DNA from: Patescibacteria group bacterium
Lineage (GTDB): Bacteria > Patescibacteriota > Minisyncoccia > GWC2-36-17 > M10-OD1-4
DNA length: 64,000 bases
Assembly: GCA_038061695.1 (NCBI GenBank)
Contig: JBBTYT010000001.1
Coordinates: 1,339-65,338 of the forward strand
Reading direction: 5' to 3'
Shown: positions 11,021 through 56,210 of the stretch, piece by piece
Layout of the letters: the number at the start of each line of letters is the position of its first letter
How positions within the stretch are numbered: position 1 is the first letter of the stretch
The notes under the pieces: generated by a model
What the model saw: only the letters and a program-made list of their open reading frames with translations
Database searches by the model: none
Told to the model about the DNA's origin: nothing
Made by a program: the position numbers and the translations under genes

Positions 11021-11389
11021 ATGGTTAAAATTAACTCTTATAAAGATTTAATCGTATGGCAAAGGTCTATGCAATTAGTTGAAAATATTTATAAAATAAC
11101 TGAGAAATTTCCCAAAGAAGAAATTTATGGTCTGACTGCGCAAATGAGAAGATCTGCCGTATCAATTCCTTCAAACATAGCAGAAGGAAGTTGTAGGGGA
11201 ACAAGAAAGGATTACGCGCAATTTTTAAGAATGGCATATGGATCTGGCGCTGAGCTTGAAACACAAATAGAGATAGCAAAAAGATTACTAGGAAAACAAA
11301 AAATTGATTATTCTGACGTTGATAAATTTTTAGATGAAGTAATGAAGATGCTTAATTCTTTAATAAAAAGACTAACCACCAACATCTAA
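11021..11389 (+). CDS. Four-helix-bundle protein (TIGR02436 / 23S rRNA intervening-sequence protein family)
   Basis: YKDLIVWQRSMQLVENIYKIT...EEIYGLTAQMRRSAVSIPSNIAEGSCRG...AYGSGAELETQIEIA is a near-textbook match to the family consensus. The gene is flanked by inverted repeats 10981-11012 and 11388-11424. Confidence 0.85.
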   Translation: MVKINSYKDLIVWQRSMQLVENIYKITEKFPKEEIYGLTAQMRRSAVSIPSNIAEGSCRGTRKDYAQFLRMAYGSGAELETQIEIAKRLLGKQKIDYSDVDKFLDEVMKMLNSLIKRLTTNI

Positions 11390-21977: not shown

Positions 21978-22535
21978 ATGCAGAATACTCAAGTAGATTT
22001 TTTAATTAACGCGACAGAGGGCGTTGCAAATTCTGGAGTATTTCAGTCGGATGCGTTTTTGGCTTTTTTTTGGATTATTAAATTTATATTTTTGACACTT
22101 GCGGTAATTTTTTTTCTGCACATCATTTATCTTATTTTTAAAATTAATACTATACAAGGAGAATTTAAATTTTATAAAGATCTTTTAACAAAAAAAAATA
22201 CTTTTCAGCATAAAGGAGAATTTGCCGTAAAATGGAGAATAGTTAAAGAGAGGGCTTATAAAATACAAGAAGCGGAATATAAACTTGCTATTATTGAAGC
22301 AGATAAGTTGTTTGATGATCTTCTAAAAAAGATGAATTTAAAAGGTAATGATATGGGTGAAAGATTGAAGAATATCAATAATGAATTATTGCCATCTATA
22401 GATAGAGTTTGGAAGTCGCACAAGATAAGAAACAAGATCGCTCATGAGCCGGATTTTCATTTGAGTTATAATGATGCTCAAGATGTAATTAAAAACTATG
22501 AAGTGGCTTTATATGAGCTTAAAATACTTGATTAA
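21978..22535 (+). CDS. Hypothetical membrane protein
   Basis: Single TM FLAFFWIIKFIFLTLAVIFFLHIIYLIF; no motif recognised. Confidence 0.4.
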   Translation: MQNTQVDFLINATEGVANSGVFQSDAFLAFFWIIKFIFLTLAVIFFLHIIYLIFKINTIQGEFKFYKDLLTKKNTFQHKGEFAVKWRIVKERAYKIQEAEYKLAIIEADKLFDDLLKKMNLKGNDMGERLKNINNELLPSIDRVWKSHKIRNKIAHEPDFHLSYNDAQDVIKNYEVALYELKILD

Positions 22536-22716
22536 ATTGATTTTTTGTATTAGAATAGTTTAAACTCTAAATCGTCATATGCTTTGTAGTTAAAGATTAA
22601 GTGAGTGGAGTAGTTTTTTGTTTTATTAAGAATGAGTAAGACATTTGACCATCTGAATGTCTTAATTTGAGTTCAATTCTCAAAATAAGAGTAGCAGAAA
22701 AAAGTTGATAGAATAT

Positions 22717-22789
22717 AGCGGGGTAGAGGAGCTGGTACCTCGTCGGTCTCATAAGCCGAAGGTCGTGGGTTCGAATCCCGCCCCCGCAA
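22717..22789 (+). tRNA. tRNA with CAT anticodon, possibly initiator-like because the acceptor stem appears to have an unpaired 1:72 position
   Basis: Cloverleaf by eye: D-stem GAGG/CCTC, anticodon loop CTCATAA, T-loop TTCGAAT, acceptor xGCGGGG/CCCCGCx with discriminator A. Confidence 0.6.
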
Positions 22790-22821
22790 CAAAGTTTGGT
22801 ATGGTTTTTTCCAGTGATTAC

Positions 22822-22895
22822 GCCAGGGTAGCTCAGTTGGTTAGAGCACAGGACTCATAAGCCTGGGGTCGTGGGTTCGAATCCCACCTCTGGTA
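22822..22895 (+). tRNA. tRNA with CAT anticodon (elongator Met or lysidine-modified Ile2)
   Basis: GCCAGGG-T-A-GCTCAGTTGGTTAGAGC...CTCATAA...GTGGGTTCGAATCCCAC-CTCTGGT-A. Identity cannot be settled from sequence alone. Confidence 0.65.
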
Positions 22896-22917
22896 CCGAA
22901 ACTTTATAATTTTTTTT

Positions 22918-22995
22918 GGGGCCGTGGTCTAGCCCGGTTATGACGTCTCCCTGTCACGGAGAAGATCGCCGGTTCAAATCCGGTCGGCCCCGCCA
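22918..22995 (+). tRNA. tRNA-Asp (GTC) with genomically encoded CCA
   Basis: Acceptor GGGGCCG/CGGCCCC, anticodon loop CTGTCAC, T-loop TTCAAAT, discriminator G plus CCA. Minus-strand ORF 22904-23200 overlapping it is spurious. Confidence 0.8.
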
Positions 22996-23119
22996 GATTT
23001 CTAAGTTTGAACCCCGATAAAATAAGGGGTTTTGATGATTTAGAAACCGTTATCCGAACGAGGCGCCGGTTTTTCTTAATCCTTATCAAAGGAGTAAAAT
23101 TTTGATATAATAAAATTAT

Positions 23120-25462
23120 ATGGCAAACGAAAGAAAAACCGAAATAATCACAAGAGATCACTTTTCCAATTTTTTGGATTCTATTTATATTGAAGAACAA
23201 CGCTCAGATAATCCAAAAATTGATAAGTTGTTAAAATCCGCCTCAAAAAAAGGCGGTGGAAAAGGTTATCCTGAATTTATCATTAGCTATAAAACCAATC
23301 CTGATTTATTGATTGTTGTTGAATGTAAAGCAGATGTAACCAAACATGAAAGCAAAGATCGTGATAAATATTCAGAATTTGCGGTTGATGGTGCTTTACT
23401 TTATGCCTCCTATCTCTCTAAGGGTTTTGATGTTTTGGCAATCGCAGTTAGTGGAGAAACAAAACAATCATTAAAAGTTTCTCACTTTTTGCATTTAAGA
23501 AATGAGAAAAAAGCGACCCCAATTTTCGGAGATAAATTTTTACCTGTTGATGATTATTTGAATGGATATTTGAAAAGTCCTGAAAAATTCAGACAAGACT
23601 ATATCTCCCTTTTGGATTTTACAAAACAGCTTAATGAAAAACTACATACCTATAAGATTCTTGAAAGTCAAAGAAGTTTGCTTATCAGCTCAATTTTAAT
23701 TGCTTTAGAAAATCCTGCATTTAAAAGATCGTATGCTTCGCACACTAGACCAGAAGACTTAGCTTCTTCTCTTATACAAACAGTTTTAAGTGAATTAGAA
23801 AAGGCAAATATTACTGGTAAAAAATTAGAAAATTTAAATACACAATTTAGTTTTATAAAAACTGACACTTCTTTATCAAAAAAAGAAAATATTTTGAAAG
23901 AAATTATTGACGAAATTGACGAAAATATAAATATTTTTATTAAAACTCACAAATATTTTGATGTATTAGGACAGCTCTATATTGAATTTTTGAGATACGC
24001 AAACAGCGATAAAGGTTTAGGAATTGTTTTAACACCTCCGCATATTACAGAACTTTTTGCAGATTTGGCACAAGTAAATAAAAACTCTATTGCCTACGAT
24101 AATTGTACTGGAACAGGCGGATTTTTGATTAGTGCAATGAAAAGAATGATCGCAGATGCAAAAGGTGATGAAACAAAAATTAAAGAAATAAAATCAAAAC
24201 AGCTTATTGGAACGGAATATCAATCACATATTTTCGCTTTGGCGGTTTCTAATATGTATATCCATCAAGATGGAAAAACGAATATCATAAATGGAAGCTG
24301 TTTTGATGAGGAAGTTATTGAAGAAGTTAAATCAAGAAAACCAACAGTTGGATTTTTAAACCCGCCTTACAAATCAAATAAAAAAACAGATACTGATGAA
24401 TTAGAATTTATACTAAACAACTTAGAGTGTTTAGTTGACGGAGGAACTTGTGTTGCGATTGTACCAATGAGTAGTGCTTTAGCGATGAAAGGGAAAACCT
24501 ACGAAATTAAAAAGGAATTATTAAAAAAGCATACATTAGAAGCAGTATTATCAATGCCTAATGATTTATTTATTGATTCTGATGTTGGTACAGTTACTTG
24601 TATTATGGTTTTCACTGCTCATAAACCACATTTTCAAGGAAAAAAAACATTTTTTGGATATTTTAAAAATGATGGATTTGAGAAAAGAAGAAAAGGAAGA
24701 ATTGAAATTAATTGTCAATGGAAAGATATAAAAAATGAATGGCTAAAGGCATATTTAAACAAAGCCAATATTCCTGATTTAAGTATTAATATAGAAGTAA
24801 CGGCAAATAATGAATGGTGCCCAGAAGCATACTTAATTACAGATTTTACAAAAATAAATAATAATAATTTTATTAAAAATCTAAAAGAACATTGTATTTA
24901 TTTGTTTAATAACGATCTATCAAAAAATATTTCCAATAATCCTTTGGTGCAAAAAGAAATAAATATAAATTTTCAAAATTGGCAAAGGTTCAAGGTTAAA
25001 GATTTCTTCAAGGTTTATTCTGGTGGTGATAAACCAAAATCAGATGATTCAAAACATTGGAATGGTGAGATTGTTAATTCAGTAGAAAATCAAACAACAA
25101 ACAATGGAATAAAAGAAAAAATAGAATTTGCCGATGAAAATAAGATTTTTGAAAATTTTATTTCAGTTGTTTCTATCGGAGAAGGAGGTAAGGCATTTTA
25201 TCAACCAGAAAAAGGCGCTTGTTTTACTCGTGTTAAAGTCCTTGTTCCAATTAAGCAATGCAAAAATAATTTTAATAAATATCTCTTTCTGTTTTTTTGC
25301 TCCTTACTTGATATGGAAAGATATAGATATGGCTATGGCAGAGTTCTTAGCAAAGATAGATTGGGAGAAACGGAGTTATTAATACCAACAAAGAACAATT
25401 TACCAGATTGGGAATTTATGGAAAATTATATTAAATCATTGCCCTATTCTTCAAGTCTCTAA
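23120..25462 (+). CDS. Single-polypeptide restriction-modification enzyme, Type IIG-like: N-terminal PD-ExK nuclease, gamma-class N6-adenine methyltransferase and a C-terminal specificity region
   Basis: NPDLLIVVECK is a PD-x5-ExK motif. MTase motif I DNCTGTGGFLISA and motif IV FLNPPYK. The C-terminal region resembles a target-recognition domain. 780 aa. Confidence 0.6.
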   Translation: MANERKTEIITRDHFSNFLDSIYIEEQRSDNPKIDKLLKSASKKGGGKGYPEFIISYKTNPDLLIVVECKADVTKHESKDRDKYSEFAVDGALLYASYLSKGFDVLAIAVSGETKQSLKVSHFLHLRNEKKATPIFGDKFLPVDDYLNGYLKSPEKFRQDYISLLDFTKQLNEKLHTYKILESQRSLLISSILIALENPAFKRSYASHTRPEDLASSLIQTVLSELEKANITGKKLENLNTQFSFIKTDTSLSKKENILKEIIDEIDENINIFIKTHKYFDVLGQLYIEFLRYANSDKGLGIVLTPPHITELFADLAQVNKNSIAYDNCTGTGGFLISAMKRMIADAKGDETKIKEIKSKQLIGTEYQSHIFALAVSNMYIHQDGKTNIINGSCFDEEVIEEVKSRKPTVGFLNPPYKSNKKTDTDELEFILNNLECLVDGGTCVAIVPMSSALAMKGKTYEIKKELLKKHTLEAVLSMPNDLFIDSDVGTVTCIMVFTAHKPHFQGKKTFFGYFKNDGFEKRRKGRIEINCQWKDIKNEWLKAYLNKANIPDLSINIEVTANNEWCPEAYLITDFTKINNNNFIKNLKEHCIYLFNNDLSKNISNNPLVQKEININFQNWQRFKVKDFFKVYSGGDKPKSDDSKHWNGEIVNSVENQTTNNGIKEKIEFADENKIFENFISVVSIGEGGKAFYQPEKGACFTRVKVLVPIKQCKNNFNKYLFLFFCSLLDMERYRYGYGRVLSKDRLGETELLIPTKNNLPDWEFMENYIKSLPYSSSL

Positions 25463-25525
25463 ATATAACTCCTTGTAGATCAAAATAAAAACTCCCTGAA
25501 AAGCTGACGGGAAAAGCTCGATCAA

Positions 25526-25711
25526 CTAATTTGTGGAATCCACGATATCATCCGAGTAAGCAATCTGCTTTACACGAAGAGCAGAGTTAATAGCGGCTTG
25601 TTTTGAGGAATAACCCTCACTAGCAGCGACCTTCTCGCCGTTTAAAGCTTGAAGGTACCACCGATAATAACCGGCACGATTTTTGTAAATCACAAATCTT
25701 GGTTTTGCCAT
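25526..25711 (-). CDS. YegP-like (DUF1508/UPF0339) single-domain protein
   Basis: FVIYKNRAGYYRWYLQALNGEKVAASEGYSSKQAAINSALRVK matches the DUF1508 consensus (F.iyKd..GeyRwrLka.NGeiia.SegYsska.a...i.sVk). Codons are more G+C-rich than flanking host genes. Confidence 0.65.
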   Translation of the reverse strand: MAKPRFVIYKNRAGYYRWYLQALNGEKVAASEGYSSKQAAINSALRVKQIAYSDDIVDSTN

Positions 25712-26053
25712 AGATTTAATCCATTACTTTTTGTTAATTAATAGAGAGTCGACCTTTACGCTTACTCCCCACCCCAAAAACTAAAAGTTCCTAGGGAGGA
25801 GAGGTAAAGGCGACTTGATCTAATAACCACGAAAAGGTCCCTGAGGTATCCCGCCAGCTTTTCAAGGAGCTAATAATTACAATTTACGCTTTTTGAATTA
25901 TGGAGTCAAGATTAAGATATAAAATAATCCACCTCATTTTTACCCCTATTAGACTCTGGACGAGGCGTTTCAAACCATTCAGGATGAACTTTGTACATTA
26001 CCCTTAATTCGCTATACTTTTATCAATATCTTCGAATTTGAGCCACTTTCTAG

Positions 26054-26100
26054 GTTCAAAGTTCCGGAGATCGGCCCAGCCATATTTTTAAGTTTGAACC
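26054..26100 (+). repeat. Degenerate direct repeat of the tRNA-Asp 3' end plus downstream flank (putative attR of an integrated element)
   Basis: GGTTCAAAGTTCCGGAGATCGGCCCAGCCATATTTTTAAGTTTGAACC versus tRNA-Asp 22971-23013 GGTTCAAATCCGGTCGGCCCCGCCAGATTTCTAAGTTTGAACC. About 40 of 43 positions align with two small indels, including 12 identical terminal bases TAAGTTTGAACC. Confidence 0.6.
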
Positions 26101-26302
26101 GTAATGATTACAAGACTTAATGAAAGGAAGTTTTTTGAGCTTTCAGTGATGTATTCTCAACATAACAGAGCACGGATTGGTCGCGCTTTTTATTGCGACC
26201 ATTGACTTTTGCTTTAATAAATACTATTATGTTAAGTCATGATTCGGCATGTTGTTGGTCAGGTGGTCTGTTCATTCAAAACAAAATAAGGAGTGTGTTA
26301 TT

Positions 26303-26680
26303 ATGGTAAAGAAAATTTTGGTGCTGTTTCGAGATAAATTTTTTCACTGGAGGATATCTGATATGCTTAGACAAAATTATGGTCAATATACCTCAATAGA
26401 GAATGGAATTTGTTCTTTTCTTTACAACTCAAAAAACGCGTTGGATATCGTAGAAAGATTTAAAAAAGGAGGCTATGACTATCTGGTGATTATGGGTTCG
26501 TTCCAGATGAGTGATGTGTTCTGTAAAAATGGTATCAGAGTGTTGTGGCCGGAATGGGTCAAGGAAGATGATCATTCTAAAATTGAGTTTTATGATATGC
26601 ACGCCAGGCAAGGTTACCGGCTCGTTCGGTTTCGTCAGATTAAGAGTTTCACTAATGATACTCTAGAATTTGAGGATTGA
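26303..26680 (+). CDS. Hypothetical protein (island gene)
   Basis: Start chosen at the internal ATG with SD TAAGGAG 8 nt upstream (track ORF begins 26249). TTGACT-N17-TATTAT promoter-like site at about 26197-26225, preceded by a TGGTCGC/GCGACCA inverted repeat. Confidence 0.45.
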   Translation: MVKKILVLFRDKFFHWRISDMLRQNYGQYTSIENGICSFLYNSKNALDIVERFKKGGYDYLVIMGSFQMSDVFCKNGIRVLWPEWVKEDDHSKIEFYDMHARQGYRLVRFRQIKSFTNDTLEFED

Positions 26681-26767
26681 TTCATTTGGTGTTTCGGCAC
26701 CTTCACAGAATGGATATGATCGCCGAAACGATCGTGTCAGTAATGCATAAAATGAAAGGAGATCAAG

Positions 26768-27127
26768 ATGGAATACGATGAAGTCCTCAAACTGGCAATG
26801 AAGCTCGGAAAGGAGCGTCATCCGGAAGCTCCTCAACACCATCACGCGGCCTTTGTCAACTCAGTGCAGACTCTTGTTACTGGTTGGAGTGGAGGCTTCG
26901 GCGGTCCGTCCATGCGTGAGCACTGGGCGTGCCGAGTTGCCAAAGCCAAGGACACAGTCGGACAGTTCAGCTTCGACGATGCGGTGACGGCGGTTGAGGA
27001 AGCCTGTTACGGCCAACTCACCCTCGATCACGCGAACATGCTCGAAGAGGAGCACTGCTTCGATGATGCTCCTGGTGAAGTGGAGACGGCACAGTGGCTT
27101 CTGGCGATGCACCATCAGCACGATTGA
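26768..27127 (+). CDS. Hypothetical protein, conspicuously G+C-rich foreign ORF
   Basis: SD AAAGGAG upstream; His/Glu-rich product. Followed by hairpin terminator GGCACGTTTT-CCCA-AAAACGTGCC plus T-run (27154-27188). Overlapping minus ORF 26861-27193 and plus ORF 26994-27221 rejected. Confidence 0.5.
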   Translation: MEYDEVLKLAMKLGKERHPEAPQHHHAAFVNSVQTLVTGWSGGFGGPSMREHWACRVAKAKDTVGQFSFDDAVTAVEEACYGQLTLDHANMLEEEHCFDDAPGEVETAQWLLAMHHQHD

Positions 27128-27339
27128 ATTGAAGTGTGCGATAATGGGTTTCTGGCACGTTTTCCCAAAAAACGTGCCTTTTCTTTTATCCATTTTTGGC
27201 TATTTGACCGCCTTTATGTAATAATATACAATGGAAAGGTGAAAATATCACCTTTTCATTAAACATATTGATATTGCTACACTCGGAACAGGAGCGATAG
27301 TGTCTTCTGGTAAGTGCGAATTTAGAAAATAGTTTCTCT

Positions 27340-28761
27340 ATGAAAAAGATCGTCTTTTATTCTTGGCAGTCAGATTTACCTAACGGTACAAATCGTAATC
27401 TTATCGAAGGTGTTTTAAAGGATGTTGCCAAAGAAATAGGAAGTGATGAAGATACTAATATCGAGCATGTTATCGACAGGGATACTCAAGGTGTAGCCGG
27501 TGCGCCGAATATTGCAACAGCTATTTTCCAAAAAATTGATTCGGCAGATATTTTTGTCGCTGATGTATCAATAATTGGAAGTGCGAAAAAACGCGCAGTA
27601 CCTAATCCAAATGTTTTAATTGAATTAGGATATGCTCTTAAATCTTTAGGACACGAACGTATTATATTGGTTTTTAATACTGCGTTTGGAAAAATTGAAA
27701 AATTACCATTTGATCTAAGAATGCATAGAACTCTTACTTACCAATGTGCTGAGTCGGTTACAGATCGCACAGAAATAAAGAAAGGTTTAATTAGAGATTT
27801 CAGATTAGCTCTTTTAGCGGGATTTTCTCATGTAACTCCTAAAAAAGTCACAACACCTATAATTGATATCATCAAAAATAGAACGGCGAGTAAAAAAATT
27901 GACCTCAGGGCATATTTAGATGAATTATATAATGAATTGTGGAAATTACAGCCACCTATGAAAAGAGATGGCGGTACTGTACAAGATTTGTTATCTGCTC
28001 TACCAAAAACCGAAAAAATATCTGCCAAATTTGCAAAACTTTCACAGACCATCGTTTTAATGAACGATAAAGAATCATCAAGAGAAGTATTTCAATGGTT
28101 CGGTAAGTTGTTAACGAATTACGATCCAATACTAAAAGGCGATGGTAAAATATGGAACTGTGATGGAGATTTTTTTAAATTTATAGGGCATGATCTTTTT
28201 GTAAATTTTATAAATCCTTTTCTGCGAGAAGAAAAATGGGATGAAATAAAAGAACTTTTAAAAGGAATTTTATCAGTTGGGCCAACATCGTATAGCCAAA
28301 ACGATCGAAAGGAATCTTGGACAGAGTTATCCAAACATTCTCCGCTTTTAATAGATGAAGGGAAAACTAATCGCCGTGTATCTTTCCATGCCGATTTATT
28401 AAAAACCAGACACGAAAAAGGTGAATTAGCTTCCATCGTACCTTTTAAGGAATTTACTGAAACAGATTTTTTTCTCCATTTATATGGCGAAGGGATAACA
28501 CAAGATAACAAATATTACGGTAAATGGTATCCGAGAAGTGATATCTGGCTTCAGCATACTCCAAAATTTATATCTGAAGCTACTGATTATCCAACCGCCA
28601 TGAAGATATGCAATGCTCTACAAATAAGTGATGTCGAAGAATTTAAAAGACGGCTGGCACATACACAAATTAAATGGGATTGGCATTCCCCAGTTAGCGC
28701 AGCAGATATTAATAAAATTGGGAGTACTGGTGGTGCTGTTATTATTAAAATAGATGAATAA
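27340..28761 (+). CDS. TIR-like (ThsB/DUF1863-like, nucleoside 2-deoxyribosyltransferase fold) N-terminal domain fused to a roughly 300-aa C-terminal domain of unknown function; candidate anti-phage defense protein
   Basis: N-terminus KIVFYSWQSD parallels the ThsB-type RVFFSFHYQD start. ADIFVADVS and NPNVLIELGYALKSLGHERIILVFN carry the conserved Glu of the TIR/NDT superfamily. No motif recognised in residues about 170-473. Promoter-like TTGACC-N17-TACAAT at about 27195-27225. Confidence 0.5.
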   Translation: MKKIVFYSWQSDLPNGTNRNLIEGVLKDVAKEIGSDEDTNIEHVIDRDTQGVAGAPNIATAIFQKIDSADIFVADVSIIGSAKKRAVPNPNVLIELGYALKSLGHERIILVFNTAFGKIEKLPFDLRMHRTLTYQCAESVTDRTEIKKGLIRDFRLALLAGFSHVTPKKVTTPIIDIIKNRTASKKIDLRAYLDELYNELWKLQPPMKRDGGTVQDLLSALPKTEKISAKFAKLSQTIVLMNDKESSREVFQWFGKLLTNYDPILKGDGKIWNCDGDFFKFIGHDLFVNFINPFLREEKWDEIKELLKGILSVGPTSYSQNDRKESWTELSKHSPLLIDEGKTNRRVSFHADLLKTRHEKGELASIVPFKEFTETDFFLHLYGEGITQDNKYYGKWYPRSDIWLQHTPKFISEATDYPTAMKICNALQISDVEEFKRRLAHTQIKWDWHSPVSAADINKIGSTGGAVIIKIDE

Positions 28762-28930
28762 ATATGAAAAAGAAAAAATTTGATATTATAAAATTTATAA
28801 GGGAGTTTGTGTAATCACAAAGATTAACACGCGCACGGGTGGGTGGGGCAAGTGTTGTATTTATGTAGCCGACCTCTCCTCCAAAAAATCTTCGGATTGA
28901 ACCTCTTCTTATAACCTCGCAATTAAGAAA

Positions 28931-28960
28931 AACAGAAATCTTTAAATTTCTGTTTTTCTT
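28931..28960 (+). terminator. Rho-independent terminator at the distal end of the accessory region
   Basis: AACAGAAAT-CTTTAA-ATTTCTGTT perfect 9-bp stem followed by TTTCTT. Confidence 0.6.
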
Positions 28961-28994
28961 GCATTAAAGCTCTAATTATTCTAAAATATCTGGT

Positions 28995-29357
28995 ATGATA
29001 GATAAAAGAGAAATAGGTAAAATATTACTTATAACGATAACCTCTTTTTTGGTATTTCTTTCGATCTTATTTAAGGTGGATCCTAAAAATGCGGAACCAT
29101 TGGAATTTATAGCTTTTTATGTCAGTATATTCCTATCGCTTTTCGGGTTATTTTTCTTAGTCGGATTTATGGTGATGCATTTAAGCAAAAAATCTGACTC
29201 GCTGACATTTTATCAATCTGCTTTGCATGGGGGTTTACTCTCTCTTCTGCTCGTAGGTTTAATTATGCTTCAGCATTTGGGATATTTTTCATTTTTAAAT
29301 ATAATAATTTTTTCTTTAGGTGTGATATTTTTAGAATTTACTTTTTCAAAGAGATGA
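28995..29357 (+). CDS. Hypothetical polytopic membrane protein
   Basis: Three to four hydrophobic helices; stop overlaps the pheS start (ATGA). Confidence 0.45.
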   Translation: MIDKREIGKILLITITSFLVFLSILFKVDPKNAEPLEFIAFYVSIFLSLFGLFFLVGFMVMHLSKKSDSLTFYQSALHGGLLSLLLVGLIMLQHLGYFSFLNIIIFSLGVIFLEFTFSKR

Positions 29358-30385
29358 CGATTGATTTTAATGAATTAAAAAAAGAAGCGGATGGGGAGCT
29401 TAAAAAAATAGAGAGCCAAGAAAAACTTGAGCTTTTTAGGTTAAAATATTTTGGCAGAAAGGCGGGTATTTTAAATGATATTTTAAAATCTCTCAAAGAT
29501 TTATCAATTGAAGAAAAAAAAGAGGTTGGCAAGTTTGCAAATGAATTAAAAATATATCTTGAAAATGAAATAGATATAAAAAAAGAATCTCTCTTATTTG
29601 GTGATATAAAAGAGAGAGAAAAGAAAGAGAAGATTGATATTACTGTCCCGGGAAAAAAAGTTTTTAGAGGATATATTCATCCGTTGACTCATGTTATGAG
29701 AAAGGCGGTTTCAATATTTGAATCTATGGGATTTGAGGTTGTCTCCGGTCCAGAAGTTGAAACAGAGTTTTATAATTTCGATGCTTTAAATATACCAGCT
29801 TCTCATCCATCTCGCGATATGCAAGATACTTTCTGGCTTGATGTGCCAGGACTTTTAATGAGAACTCAGACATCATCTGTGCAGATAAGATTTATGAAGG
29901 AGCATAATAAACCTCCATTTAGAATAGTTTGTCCAGGAAGAGTCTTTAGAAAAGAGGCAACTGATGCTACGCATGAGATGCAATTTTATCAGATGGAATG
30001 TCTTGTTGTTGCAGAAAATATTTCTTTAGTCAATTTAAAATCAATTCTTGAATTATTTTTTAAGAAATTATTAGATAATAAGAAGATCAAGGTTAGATTT
30101 AGACCGTCTTTTTTCCCATTTGTTGAGCCTGGAGTAGAGGTGGACATCCTTTGTTTTAAATGTTCTGGAAAGGGATGTCCATTATGTAAAGAAACAGGTT
30201 GGATAGAGGTTGGTGGAGCAGGAATGGTGCATCCTAAGGTTTTAAAAGGAGTTAATATTGATATTTCAAAGTATAGAGGTTTTGCATTTGGTATGGGACT
30301 GGATAGAATAGCGATGATAAGATACGGAATTGATGATTTGCGTTTATTTTACAACACTGATATGCGATTTTTAAAACAATTTTAA
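29354..30385 (+). CDS. pheS: Phenylalanine--tRNA ligase alpha subunit
   Basis: Class II aaRS motifs (FRxE-like RVFRKEATDATHEMQFYQMEC, GxGxGxxR GFAFGMGLDRIAMIRYG); 343 aa. Confidence 0.9.
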   Translation: MTIDFNELKKEADGELKKIESQEKLELFRLKYFGRKAGILNDILKSLKDLSIEEKKEVGKFANELKIYLENEIDIKKESLLFGDIKEREKKEKIDITVPGKKVFRGYIHPLTHVMRKAVSIFESMGFEVVSGPEVETEFYNFDALNIPASHPSRDMQDTFWLDVPGLLMRTQTSSVQIRFMKEHNKPPFRIVCPGRVFRKEATDATHEMQFYQMECLVVAENISLVNLKSILELFFKKLLDNKKIKVRFRPSFFPFVEPGVEVDILCFKCSGKGCPLCKETGWIEVGGAGMVHPKVLKGVNIDISKYRGFAFGMGLDRIAMIRYGIDDLRLFYNTDMRFLKQF

Positions 30386-46068: not shown

Positions 46069-46332
46069 ATGATATTAAAGAATAATCAAGCAGGGAGCTA
46101 TGTTGTTGAGCTCGATGCTTACGAAGGTGTAGTTAGGGGAGCTAAGGTGTTATTCATAGCTTCTAACGAAAAGGTCGTCGTAAGAAATATCTCTAGTGTT
46201 GATAACGAGGTATTTATTATGGTTGATACTCCTAAGAAATTCTGGAGGGATTGTCATAAGAATCTTGGGCAGTCTTTTGAACCACCAGAAATTGTGAAGG
46301 TTCGCAAGAGCGATATTTATGTTCTTGTGTAA
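46069..46332 (+). CDS. Small hypothetical protein (87 aa) with strong SD and its own terminator
   Basis: SD AGGAGGG 7 nt upstream; terminator ACCCGC...GCGGGT plus T-run at 46345-46385. Confidence 0.45.
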   Translation: MILKNNQAGSYVVELDAYEGVVRGAKVLFIASNEKVVVRNISSVDNEVFIMVDTPKKFWRDCHKNLGQSFEPPEIVKVRKSDIYVLV

Positions 46333-55010: not shown

Positions 55011-56210
55011 ATGAATGATCAAGATGTAAATAAATCAGAGTTTAAGGAAATACCCTTGAAAATATATGAACCAACATGGGGTTCAGACCTTGCTGGTACT
55101 ATTATTGAGCTTGAAAAACTGCGCGTAAGAAAGCTTGGTGGACCGGTCCCACCCTATATATTTTTTCAGCTGAAAGATATTTTTCAGATGATGGAAAGTC
55201 TCGGGTCCGCGCGCATCGAGGGAAACCATACAACCCTCGCCGAGTTTGTTGAAAAAATTATTGACCAAATTCCAAAAGACACAAAAGAGGAATCCATTCG
55301 TGAGATTTTTAACATTGAACGAGCAATTAAATTTATCGAGGATAATGTTGCCGAGGGTGGGAAAATTACTCGTGCGCATATATCAGAAATTCATAAAATT
55401 ATTGTAGATGGTCTTACTCCGTCACCATTTGGTGAAGGCTCATGTTATCCTGGAGACTTGAGATCAATCAATGTCGGCATTCAAGGATCGTCCCATGTGC
55501 CACCTGATAAAGTTAAAGTGCTAGATTATTTTGAAGAGCTTATTGCGTTTGTGAACACGGAAGTCGGACCACAAAACGATCTATTGGTAACAGCTCTCTC
55601 TCATCATCGTATGGCGTGGATTCACCCATTCGATAACGGCAACGGACGTTTGATTCGAATGTTTACTTACGCTTTGCTCATTAAGCAAGGTTTTAAAGTC
55701 CATGACGGACGAATACTTAATCCAACGGCAATCTTTTGTATGGACCGTAATCAGTATTACAAAAATTTAGGACTTGCTGATACTGGAGAAAAAGACAAAG
55801 TGCTTGAATGGTGTTCGTATGTCCTTAGCGGTTTAAAAGAGGAAATTGAAAAAATTGACCGTTTGCTTGATTTAAAATATATGACTGAGACGATTTTGAT
55901 ACCAGTTTTGGCCTATGCGCTTGAACGTCAACTTATTACTAAACGCGAATTCTATATTTTAAGTGCCTTGGTGAAGAGTAAGTTGATGATAATTAAGTCG
56001 TCAGACCTCAATTCAATTATTGGAGAAGAGTCAGCTGTCCAGCGTTCACGCATTCTTAAGCGTCTAAAAGATAAAAAAATGCTCCGTCTTGCGCATGGCA
56101 AGAGTCGTGTATATACCATTAATTTCGTAAATAATTATCTATTGCGTGGGATTTTTTATGTTCTTGAGAAGAACGGCTTCGTCCCGCCGTCTTTGAACAA
56201 GAAAAATTAA
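55011..56210 (+). CDS. Fic family protein (class II, with N-terminal inhibitory SxxxEG helix and C-terminal winged-helix)
   Basis: Fic motif HPFDNGNGRLIRM; inhibitory motif SARIEGN upstream of the core. Flanked by AT-rich non-coding DNA on both sides. Minus ORF 55083-55379 rejected. Confidence 0.8.
   Translation: MNDQDVNKSEFKEIPLKIYEPTWGSDLAGTIIELEKLRVRKLGGPVPPYIFFQLKDIFQMMESLGSARIEGNHTTLAEFVEKIIDQIPKDTKEESIREIFNIERAIKFIEDNVAEGGKITRAHISEIHKIIVDGLTPSPFGEGSCYPGDLRSINVGIQGSSHVPPDKVKVLDYFEELIAFVNTEVGPQNDLLVTALSHHRMAWIHPFDNGNGRLIRMFTYALLIKQGFKVHDGRILNPTAIFCMDRNQYYKNLGLADTGEKDKVLEWCSYVLSGLKEEIEKIDRLLDLKYMTETILIPVLAYALERQLITKREFYILSALVKSKLMIIKSSDLNSIIGEESAVQRSRILKRLKDKKMLRLAHGKSRVYTINFVNNYLLRGIFYVLEKNGFVPPSLNKKN

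Follow-up and report, generated by a model that had tools for sequence, protein, structure and literature searches.

How did a block of about 6 kb of accessory genes come to lie between a tRNA gene and the conserved genes behind it in a bacterium of the candidate phyla radiation (CPR)? We addressed this question in a 64,000-nt stretch of DNA from a Patescibacteria group bacterium (assembly GCA_038061695.1, contig JBBTYT010000001.1, positions 1,339 to 65,338 of the forward strand), hereafter called the window; the nearest relatives of the source genome are Candidatus Azambacteria. CPR bacteria, or Patescibacteria, have tiny genomes with few recognized mobile elements, mostly do without CRISPR, and their gain and exchange of defense genes are poorly documented. 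The original prediction, made from the letters of this DNA, had proposed that small cargos were integrated one after another at the 3' end of a tRNA-Asp gene. Our analysis supports integration at this tRNA 3' end with tandem accretion through four lines of evidence: a direct repeat of the tRNA end, an empty site in one related genome, differing cargo at this position in others, and decayed pseudo-copies of the tRNA end behind the gene in related genomes. The interval 22996-28954 is probably a fixed, decayed composite island, the product of two or more site-specific insertions that followed one another at the T-arm/3' end of tRNA-Asp.

A displaced copy of the tRNA-Asp 3' end

The target gene, tRNA-Asp (GTC), is the last of three tRNA genes, and no other Rfam family was found in 22500-29400. 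A direct repeat had been claimed from 22971-23013 to 26054-26100 with about 40 of 43 positions conserved. This repeat is real and its coordinates are right within 1 nt, since the second copy starts at 26053. Copy 1 consists of the last 25 nt of tRNA-Asp and 18 nt of its trailer. Aligned with copy 2, it is identical at 40 of 43 positions, with 3 mismatches and indels of 2 and 3 nt; in the ungapped portion (22984-23013 versus 26071-26100), 27 of 30 positions agree. Sixty shuffled queries run against the whole 64-kb window on both strands reached a local score of 22.4 ± 1.75 and a maximum of 28. Copy 2 scores 55, which places the similarity far above shuffled-sequence expectation. Elsewhere in the 64 kb, the query made of the tRNA-Asp end and trailer never rose above a score of 26.

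A counterpart of the 5' two-thirds of tRNA-Asp was sought upstream of copy 2 and none was found there (score 11); copy 2 is therefore a 3' fragment and not a pseudogene of the whole tRNA. The repeat begins within the T-arm and lacks the 5' part of the tRNA, the geometry to be expected of integration at a tRNA T-loop. Integration at the tRNA T-loop is reportedly one of Williams' sublocation classes.

The same site in related genomes

The loci of relatives were fetched with gatA homologs as anchors, and one of them, L105, came from a metagenome scan. The identity of their gatA to that of the window is 83% in L106, 82% in L107, 74% in L111, 72% in L116 and in L117/L118, and 67% in L105. All share the gene order ligA, gatC, gatA, a 185-aa protein, tRNA-Met, tRNA-Met and tRNA-Asp. 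Their DNA homology with the window ends at 22993-22998 and restarts at 28955.

An empty site, in which tRNA-Asp is followed directly by the membrane gene and pheS, had been anticipated and was observed in L107 (LSNV01000028): 212 nt lead from tRNA-Asp to the membrane gene (56% identity), and pheS comes next. In L116, 458 gene-free nt follow tRNA-Asp before the membrane gene, and L111 has about 1 kb with a single 88-aa open reading frame (ORF) at the site. L105 carries there a Schlafen (SLFN) AlbA_2 + HATPase_c_4 + helix-turn-helix (HTH) gene, and in L106 and L117 the site is occupied by other ORFs that are cut by the contig end. With differing content at the same position in L105, L111, L106 and L117, the tRNA-Asp gene is indeed an insertion hotspot. 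Since the homology of the relatives has a gap here and the states of the site differ, 22996-28954 is accessory and the site is variable across the lineage.

JACQDS01, the only close reference genome for anchoring with pheS, is uninformative: one of its contigs breaks off within pheS, and the contig with the tRNA genes stops 350 nt past tRNA-Asp. Most organisms recovered by the metagenome scan, which was made with the 25-mer of the tRNA 3' end, were unrelated and of high GC content; L105 was the sole relative, and the 14 others became the controls for pseudo-copies described below. At 961-1369, L105 also has a 400-nt insert rich in inverted repeats between its two tRNA-Met genes; in the window, only about 30 nt separate the corresponding pair.

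Pseudo-copies, exchanged 3' ends and a shared trailer

Within 160 nt past the tRNA-Asp gene, relatives carry decayed copies of its last ~30 nt, with scores of 43 in L107, 44 in L111, 34 in L116 and 38 in L117; by eye, L116 possibly has a second, more decayed copy. As controls, 14 unrelated loci with an identical tRNA-Asp 3' 25-mer scored at most 17, and the 99th percentile of random segments was 21. These pseudo-copies start at the 5' edge of the T-stem in L107, L111 and L116; in L117, as in copy 2 of the window, the part that can be aligned starts a few nt further in. The pseudo-copy of L111 is closer to the window-type allele (CCGG...TCGGC) than to its own tRNA (CCAG...TCAGGC), and that of L117 is closer to the L111-type allele than to its own tRNA. 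Because both match the allele of another lineage, foreign tRNA 3' ends have been exchanged at this gene. Such allele swaps would be expected of elements whose attachment site was copied from a former host and which displace the resident 3' end.

The sequence behind tRNA-Asp was also informative. The trailer of the window scores 41 against that of L105, compared with 16.9 ± 2.7 (maximum 28) for shuffles, and the trailers of L106, L107, L111, L116 and L117 are at background level. Among 118 loci, the motif AAGTTTGAAYC occurs only in contigs of the window strain and in L105. The first 18 nt of the window trailer also follow copy 2. The trailer is probably the element-side arm of one element family, which would be present three times: heading islet 1, heading islet 2, and in L105, where different cargo follows.

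Fragments of tRNA genes were also seen elsewhere in these loci. L116 (12410-12520) and L111 (12340-12400) have, upstream of the intact gene, fragments that resemble the 5' part and anticodon arm of tRNA-Asp; the one in L116 is broken by a 51-nt palindrome. The breakpoints of the upstream 5' and downstream 3' fragments of tRNA-Asp coincide at the junction of variable loop and T-stem. In L107 (7075-7375), a decayed 5' part of tRNA-Met (to the T-stem) lies upstream of the first tRNA-Met, and a frameshifted GIY-YIG-like ORF of about 80 aa stands between it and this intact gene; this arrangement is a second kind of tRNA-gene insertion at the same locus.

Gene content of the two islets

Profile searches recovered the gene content that had been described for the region, namely a restriction-modification (R-M) enzyme, a YegP-like gene, two unknown ORFs including a GC-rich one, and a TIR-like protein. 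The features are collected in Table 1.

Table 1. Positions of the features in and around the tRNA-Asp island of the window.
Feature	Position	Strand	Remarks
tRNA-Met	22717-22790	+	ARAGORN, Rfam
tRNA-Met	22822-22897	+	ARAGORN, Rfam
tRNA-Asp (GTC), target gene	22918-22995	+	Last of tRNA-Met/tRNA-Met/tRNA-Asp cluster; ARAGORN; Rfam tRNA model 64.3 bits
Repeat copy 1 (attL-like)	22971-23013	+	T-loop, 3' T-stem, acceptor 3' strand, CCA, 18-nt trailer F GATTTCTAAGTTTGAACC
Trailer after tRNA-Asp	22996-23079	+	Homologous to L105 trailer over 84 nt
780-aa single-chain Type IIG R-M enzyme, intact	23120-25462	+	PADLOC, Pfam, motifs
30-nt imperfect inverted repeat, left arm	25483-25512		Encloses DUF1508 gene
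61-aa DUF1508 (YegP-like) gene	25526-25711	-	Sole minus-strand gene of island; Pfam DUF1508 2.1e-11
30-nt imperfect inverted repeat, right arm	25849-25878		Encloses DUF1508 gene
Repeat copy 2	26053-26100	+	Decayed tRNA-Asp 3' fragment with trailer F; boundary of islet 1 and islet 2
125-aa orphan ORF	26303-26680	+	Start as called on Logan contigs; longest ORF from 26249
119-aa orphan ORF	26768-27127	+	56.7% GC, 61% GC3, in a 33% GC genome
473-aa TIR-like protein, candidate defense effector	27340-28761	+	
Candidate third copy of tRNA 3' end	28866-28921	+	Strongly decayed, uncertain
A/T-rich hairpin terminator, right edge	28925-28960	+	36-nt inverted self-match
120-aa membrane protein, first right-flank core gene	28995-29357	+	Orthologs directly upstream of pheS in L107 (56%), L116 (40%), L111
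pheS	29354-30385		Follows membrane gene; Pfam match

In islet 1, a promoter-like site (23083-23111) lies upstream of the R-M gene. The 780-aa product matches the PADLOC model REase_MTase_IIG across residues 26-598 (6.8e-160) as well as Pfam N6_Mtase (5.8e-28) and Methylase_S (3.4e-16), and it has sequence matches in the PDB to Type I M subunits. An N-terminal PD-(D/E)XK-like motif (PDLLIVVECK) precedes a gamma-class N6-adenine methyltransferase with DNCTGTGG and NPPY and one HsdS-type target-recognition domain. By these motifs and profile matches, the single polypeptide is a Type IIG enzyme as defined by a nuclease, an N6-adenine methyltransferase and a target-recognition domain.

The DUF1508 protein behind it also matches NCBIfam HVO_2922 (1.5e-9, under the cut-off of that model). 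Its gene lies within an inverted repeat whose arms are complementary at 24 of 30 positions, the best within 600 nt across 22600-29400 and a level reached in 1 of 30 block shuffles (p ~0.03). The right arm contains CCCGCCAGCTTTTCAAG, which adds a weak likeness to the tRNA end and trailer (14/17), with a local score of 19 at about the 98th percentile of random segments; both arms were seen to resemble the tRNA acceptor end plus trailer. The minus-strand RNA of 25475-25885 (411 nt) has a predicted fold of -152.9 kcal/mol, compared with -102.4 ± 5.9 for shuffles (z -8.5), in which the inverted repeat forms a 23-bp closing stem. A strong hairpin is predicted in the 5' untranslated region (UTR), with z -3.6 for the UTR alone; Rfam gave no match. 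Nothing comparable to the inverted repeat was found around distant viral DUF1508 genes. The gap 25712-26250 had been suspected to be the remnant of a decayed integrase gene, a suspicion we could not sustain: six-frame translations of 25700-26310 gave no Pfam recombinase at E ≤ 10, and reading by eye gave nothing. Part of this gap may represent a DUF1508 promoter, for which there is one consensus match, and the structured 5' UTR; copy 2 also lies within it. By eye, two G-rich words, unusual at 33% GC, were noticed in inverted orientation: CCCCACCCC on the plus strand at 25768-25780, in the hairpin of the DUF1508 5' UTR, and GGGTGGGTGGGG at 28829-28841, at the right edge of the island.

In islet 2, a terminator-like hairpin (26178-26201) and a promoter-like site (26202-26230) lie upstream of the 125-aa ORF, which is unmatched in Pfam, NCBIfam and PHROG; the 143-aa form of this ORF has a marginal PADLOC match to PDC-M51A (E 0.0094). 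Among 1.84 billion representatives it has just 19 relatives at E ≤ 1e-3. It corresponds to a rare domain of about 110 aa, which is doubled in several proteins of 230-265 aa and occurs six times in one of 1065 aa (proteins P0294-P0304). The 119-aa ORF, followed by a strong terminator (27154-27178), has 39 homologs of about 120 aa, all unnamed, one of which (an 81% cluster) is in Candidatus Komeilibacteria. Close relatives of the 119-aa, 125-aa and TIR-like proteins were absent from IMG/VR.

The 473-aa protein matches a PADLOC TIR effector (2.2e-6) and, at 21.1 bits and thus below the cut-off of 24.7, Pfam CAP12-PCTIR_TIR (3.3e-4). Its AlphaFold model has a pLDDT (predicted local distance difference test) of 84. 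With Foldseek, the N-terminal domain retrieved the TIR domain of SfSTING (7un8, E 1.4e-4) and nucleoside 2'-deoxyribosyltransferases (NDTs), at TM-scores of 0.2-0.6, and for the C-terminal helical domain of about 330 aa the structure search gave no solved relative. The motif NPNVLIELG with E95 is invariant in 36 homologs. The family comprises at least 1699 full-length relatives, and all of the best 120 listed are hypothetical. The protein is plausibly a TIR/NDT-like candidate defense effector, a role that we infer from these profile and model matches. In other CPR genomes its gene stands in unrelated contexts, once after an XRE-type HTH gene and once alone, and DNA homology with the window is confined to the ORF. 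The description of the genes as defense cargo thus stands for the R-M enzyme, is only plausible for the TIR-like protein, and does not extend to the other three, which have no significant PADLOC match; the island holds one recognized defense system (Type IIG R-M) and one candidate.

The codon usage of the island was expected to deviate from that of the host, and it is indeed non-uniform. Against 56 background genes, whose GC content at third codon positions (GC3) is 0.24 ± 0.04, the three small genes are outliers in GC3 (z +3.1 for DUF1508, +3.7 for the 125-aa ORF and +9.2 for the 119-aa ORF), and DUF1508 and the 119-aa ORF are so in codon usage (z -3.7 and -6.7); the R-M and TIR-like genes look host-like. 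The island is thus a mosaic in which genes of the CPR pool are combined with at least one of high-GC character.

The right edge

The original prediction had placed a third, much weaker copy of the repeat at 28870-28909, just before a hairpin terminator. The terminator is real and shows up as a 36-nt inverted self-match. The copy as placed is by itself at chance level, with a score of 14 that equals the median of random 191-nt pieces of the window. The 9-mer CCTCGCAAT is common to ~28887-28921 and to the pseudo-copy of L107, in both cases just before a terminator hairpin (p ~0.02). This weak comparative signal suggests that a decayed copy may lie slightly to the right of the claimed one, at ~28887-28921. 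The conserved core resumes at 28955, the first position of the BLASTN match to L107, with a promoter-like TTTCTTGCAT...TAAAAT of the membrane gene-pheS-pheT unit, as also seen on aligning the window to L107 and L111.

Proposed history and alternative explanations

If the island was built by successive insertions, each incoming circular element would have carried an attachment site made of the 3' part of tRNA-Asp, from the T-stem onward, and ~18 nt of trailer. When this site recombined with the tRNA gene in the chromosome, a working tRNA would have been rebuilt from the copy on the element, and the previous 3' end, with everything behind it, would have been shifted away from the gene. We infer the following order of events: 26101 to ~28865, with the two orphan ORFs and the TIR/NDT-like protein, would be the older islet, and 23014-26052, with the Type IIG R-M enzyme and DUF1508, the newer one; a still older scar would possibly lie at ~28866-28921. 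A tyrosine or a serine recombinase would have performed the insertions, the latter being as possible as the former. The recombinase genes would since have been lost, or would never have been inside the islets, which would then have been mobilized in trans in the manner of cis-mobilizable elements (CIMEs). The island would now be inherited vertically.

Several observations weigh against this history. As had been noted, no intact integrase gene is present: Pfam, PADLOC and NCBIfam revealed no recombinase domain in the five ORFs of the island. Nor was a recombinase found among the window ORFs scanned, which were those unidentifiable by eye (a sigma factor, a peptidase M15, a Fic protein, a HAMP protein, a type IV secretion system (T4SS) pilin, a 23S intervening-sequence protein and a 427-aa unknown), a scan that is not exhaustive for the 62 ORFs. 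The same holds for the tRNA-Asp site in the relatives with spanning contigs (L107, L111 and L116), and neither the 25-mer of the tRNA 3' end nor the pattern of F plus trailer had an exact match in IMG/VR viral contigs. Every contig of the strain, from several samples, carries the complete island, so present mobility is not indicated. In addition, the two large genes are host-like in codon usage (GC3 z -1.1 for R-M and -0.3 for the TIR-like gene), and the statistical weakness of the third copy leaves the outermost boundary repeat with little support. Finally, the spacing of 26-57 nt between tRNA and pseudo-copy in relatives is not predicted by simple integration and requires later deletion of cargo.

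Other explanations were considered. Azambacteria-like CPR hosts might have an unrecognized family of integrase-less mini cargo cassettes that use the T-arm of tRNA-Asp as their target; the recombinase would be encoded outside them, perhaps by a phage or plasmid of CPR bacteria, or the enzyme would be an uncharacterized one. The 3' end of the gene would then have been rewritten repeatedly with alleles of other species, leaving 30-nt scars 26-57 nt apart even without cargo, and the inverted repeat and stable fold of the DUF1508 cassette would be part of the machinery. We regard this as unlikely; nevertheless, the recurrent short scar arrays, the responsible enzyme and the structured DUF1508 cassette with its att-like inverted repeats leave room for something less ordinary. 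It is also improbable, in our estimate, that the 6-kb island was acquired once, already composite, from another CPR tRNA-Asp locus, with copy 2 as an internal relic of tandem insertions that took place elsewhere. Most of the data would agree with such a single acquisition. All samples of the strain do hold the full island as one block (Logan contig L087 spans 22959-28853), copies 1 and 2 share trailer F and both islets therefore belong to one element family, and tandem arrays can move together by accretion (PMC3146451). The divergence of copy 2 (3 substitutions and 2 indels in 43 nt) speaks for its age, not for the place of the events. Yet a donor locus with the same two islets was not found, and the TIR-like gene of islet 2 is found alone elsewhere.

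Uptake without any site-specific recombinase, by natural transformation and homologous or homology-facilitated illegitimate recombination with the tRNA as homology anchor, has only a small chance of being right. It would fit the failure of every search made to find an integrase, the large type IV pilus/type II secretion system (T2SS)-like cluster of the window could serve DNA uptake, and no other stretches are as conserved as the tRNA genes when divergent CPR genomes are compared; however, replacement by double crossover does not leave the tRNA 3' end directly repeated, and repeats that start at the T-stem edge in L107, L111 and L116, and a few nt further in for the window and L117, argue for a defined crossover site and against random homologous exchange. 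We consider it very improbable that the tRNA-Asp 3' end was merely duplicated locally, or that copy 2 is what is left of a second tRNA-Asp gene, independently of how the cargo arrived. Such events might explain the tandem pseudo-copies 26-57 nt behind the tRNA without intervening cargo and the 5' fragments of tRNA-Asp upstream of the gene in L116 and L111, but they cannot yield pseudo-copies that match the allele of another lineage, of which there are two cases. Moreover, copy 2 lies 3 kb off, exactly between two gene sets that are compositionally and contextually distinct, and the trailer is common to a distant relative and not to near ones. Chance similarity can practically be set aside for copy 2, in whose favor nothing speaks given a score of 55 against a maximum of 28 in the 60 whole-window shuffles, and it applies to the third copy only. 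An origin by homing of a CRISPR-associated transposon or from a Tn7-like element had also been considered and was dropped, as there are no transposase or Cas genes and the repeat is of 43 nt, not a 5-bp duplication.

Independent Logan contigs that are 100% identical to the window, and so represent its strain, come from four sequencing runs between them and end at 22959-22963, 25964-25993, 26063 and 28824-28856; in one run two of them overlap by exactly 30 nt. These ends at module boundaries may be branches of the assembly graph caused by strain variants, which is suggestive and proves nothing.

Comparison with known systems

Successive insertion at tRNA-Asp, which we favor for this island, has close parallels. 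In the ssrA islands of Dehalococcoides and the islands of Prochlorococcus, newer elements push older ones outward and integrase-less remnants stay behind (PMC3146451; bioRxiv 10.1101/2020.12.28.424599). The likeness to Dehalococcoides extends to a small streamlined genome, tandem islands behind one tRNA-like gene with short 3'-end repeats between them, insertion at the T-loop, conserved sequence past the repeat, and islets without an integration module (PMC3146451), which in that genus have been read as cis-mobilizable or fixed remnants (PMC3146451). Many Dehalococcoides islets, however, retain an integration module of six genes that has a serine recombinase beside attL, whereas no recombinase was seen here in the islets or in relatives; the target here is tRNA-Asp and not the transfer-messenger RNA (tmRNA), and the islets, at ~3 kb, are much smaller and carry other cargo. 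With the Prochlorococcus islands and tycheposon remnants, the region shares a streamlined genome, tRNA-adjacent islands with partial tRNAs scattered within, degenerate elements and some defense-related cargo (bioRxiv 10.1101/2020.12.28.424599). Tycheposons are defined by a tyrosine recombinase and replication genes; neither was found here, which places the island outside that definition, and a helicase or primase was likewise absent from the island in Pfam, PADLOC and NCBIfam. Signs of excision or of circular forms were not obtained either.

A CIME or accreted array is flanked by att repeats and lacks genes for recombination or transfer (PMC5704250; cited in PMC3146451), which is what we observed. 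CIME status also requires att sites still usable by a related integrase, and copy 2, with two indels in its T-arm, may be dead. As at the tRNA hotspots of Enterobacteria, such as the asparagine tDNAs of Klebsiella (PMC4891358), one tRNA gene receives different islands in different strains and repeats of the tRNA 3' end bound them; the enterobacterial islands, unlike the miniature islets described here, measure tens of kb and have P4-like integrases beside the tRNA, and here no integrase was found. Among the features by which Islander-type islands are recognized, an intact tRNA, a distal repeat of its 3' fragment and an empty site in relatives are present and an integrase is not; atypical composition applies to the three small genes, which are strong outliers (GC3 z 3.1 to 9.2), and not to the two large host-like ones.

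The architecture is the textbook one of tandem, decaying tRNA/tmRNA islands with CIME-like remnants, and the island is a new instance of it in a lineage where such elements have scarcely been described. One tRNA gene that serves as a repeated landing site across several species of the lineage provides a clean comparative example, in which the empty site, sites with other cargo, swapped 3' alleles and decaying scars are all visible together. The island also contributes a candidate single-gene defense system, from a widespread family of ~470-aa TIR/NDT-like proteins with an uncharacterized C-terminal domain, and an orphan gene of 57% GC that circulates among low-GC CPR genomes.

Other observations in the window

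Besides the island genes, only two outliers were found among the 56 background genes: a Fic/DOC-domain gene (55011-56210; GC3 z +2.7, codon z -3.2) and an 87-aa ORF (46069-46332; GC3 z +3.0). Both may also be foreign. Between the T4SS-pilin gene and secE/nusG, the window has about 26 kb of mostly housekeeping genes (35250-61300), including a sigma factor, a UPF0182-like 910-aa protein, pgi, pyruvate kinase, frr, rseP, a Fic protein, mreBCD, a PBP2-like gene and a peroxiredoxin. The pilin gene adjoins secE/nusG in L004 and L116, relative to which this stretch is a large rearrangement or insertion. Finally, the type IV pilus cluster contains, at 11021-11389, a gene for a 122-aa 23S rRNA intervening-sequence protein/bAvd-like four-helix bundle; bAvd-like proteins can accompany diversity-generating retroelements.

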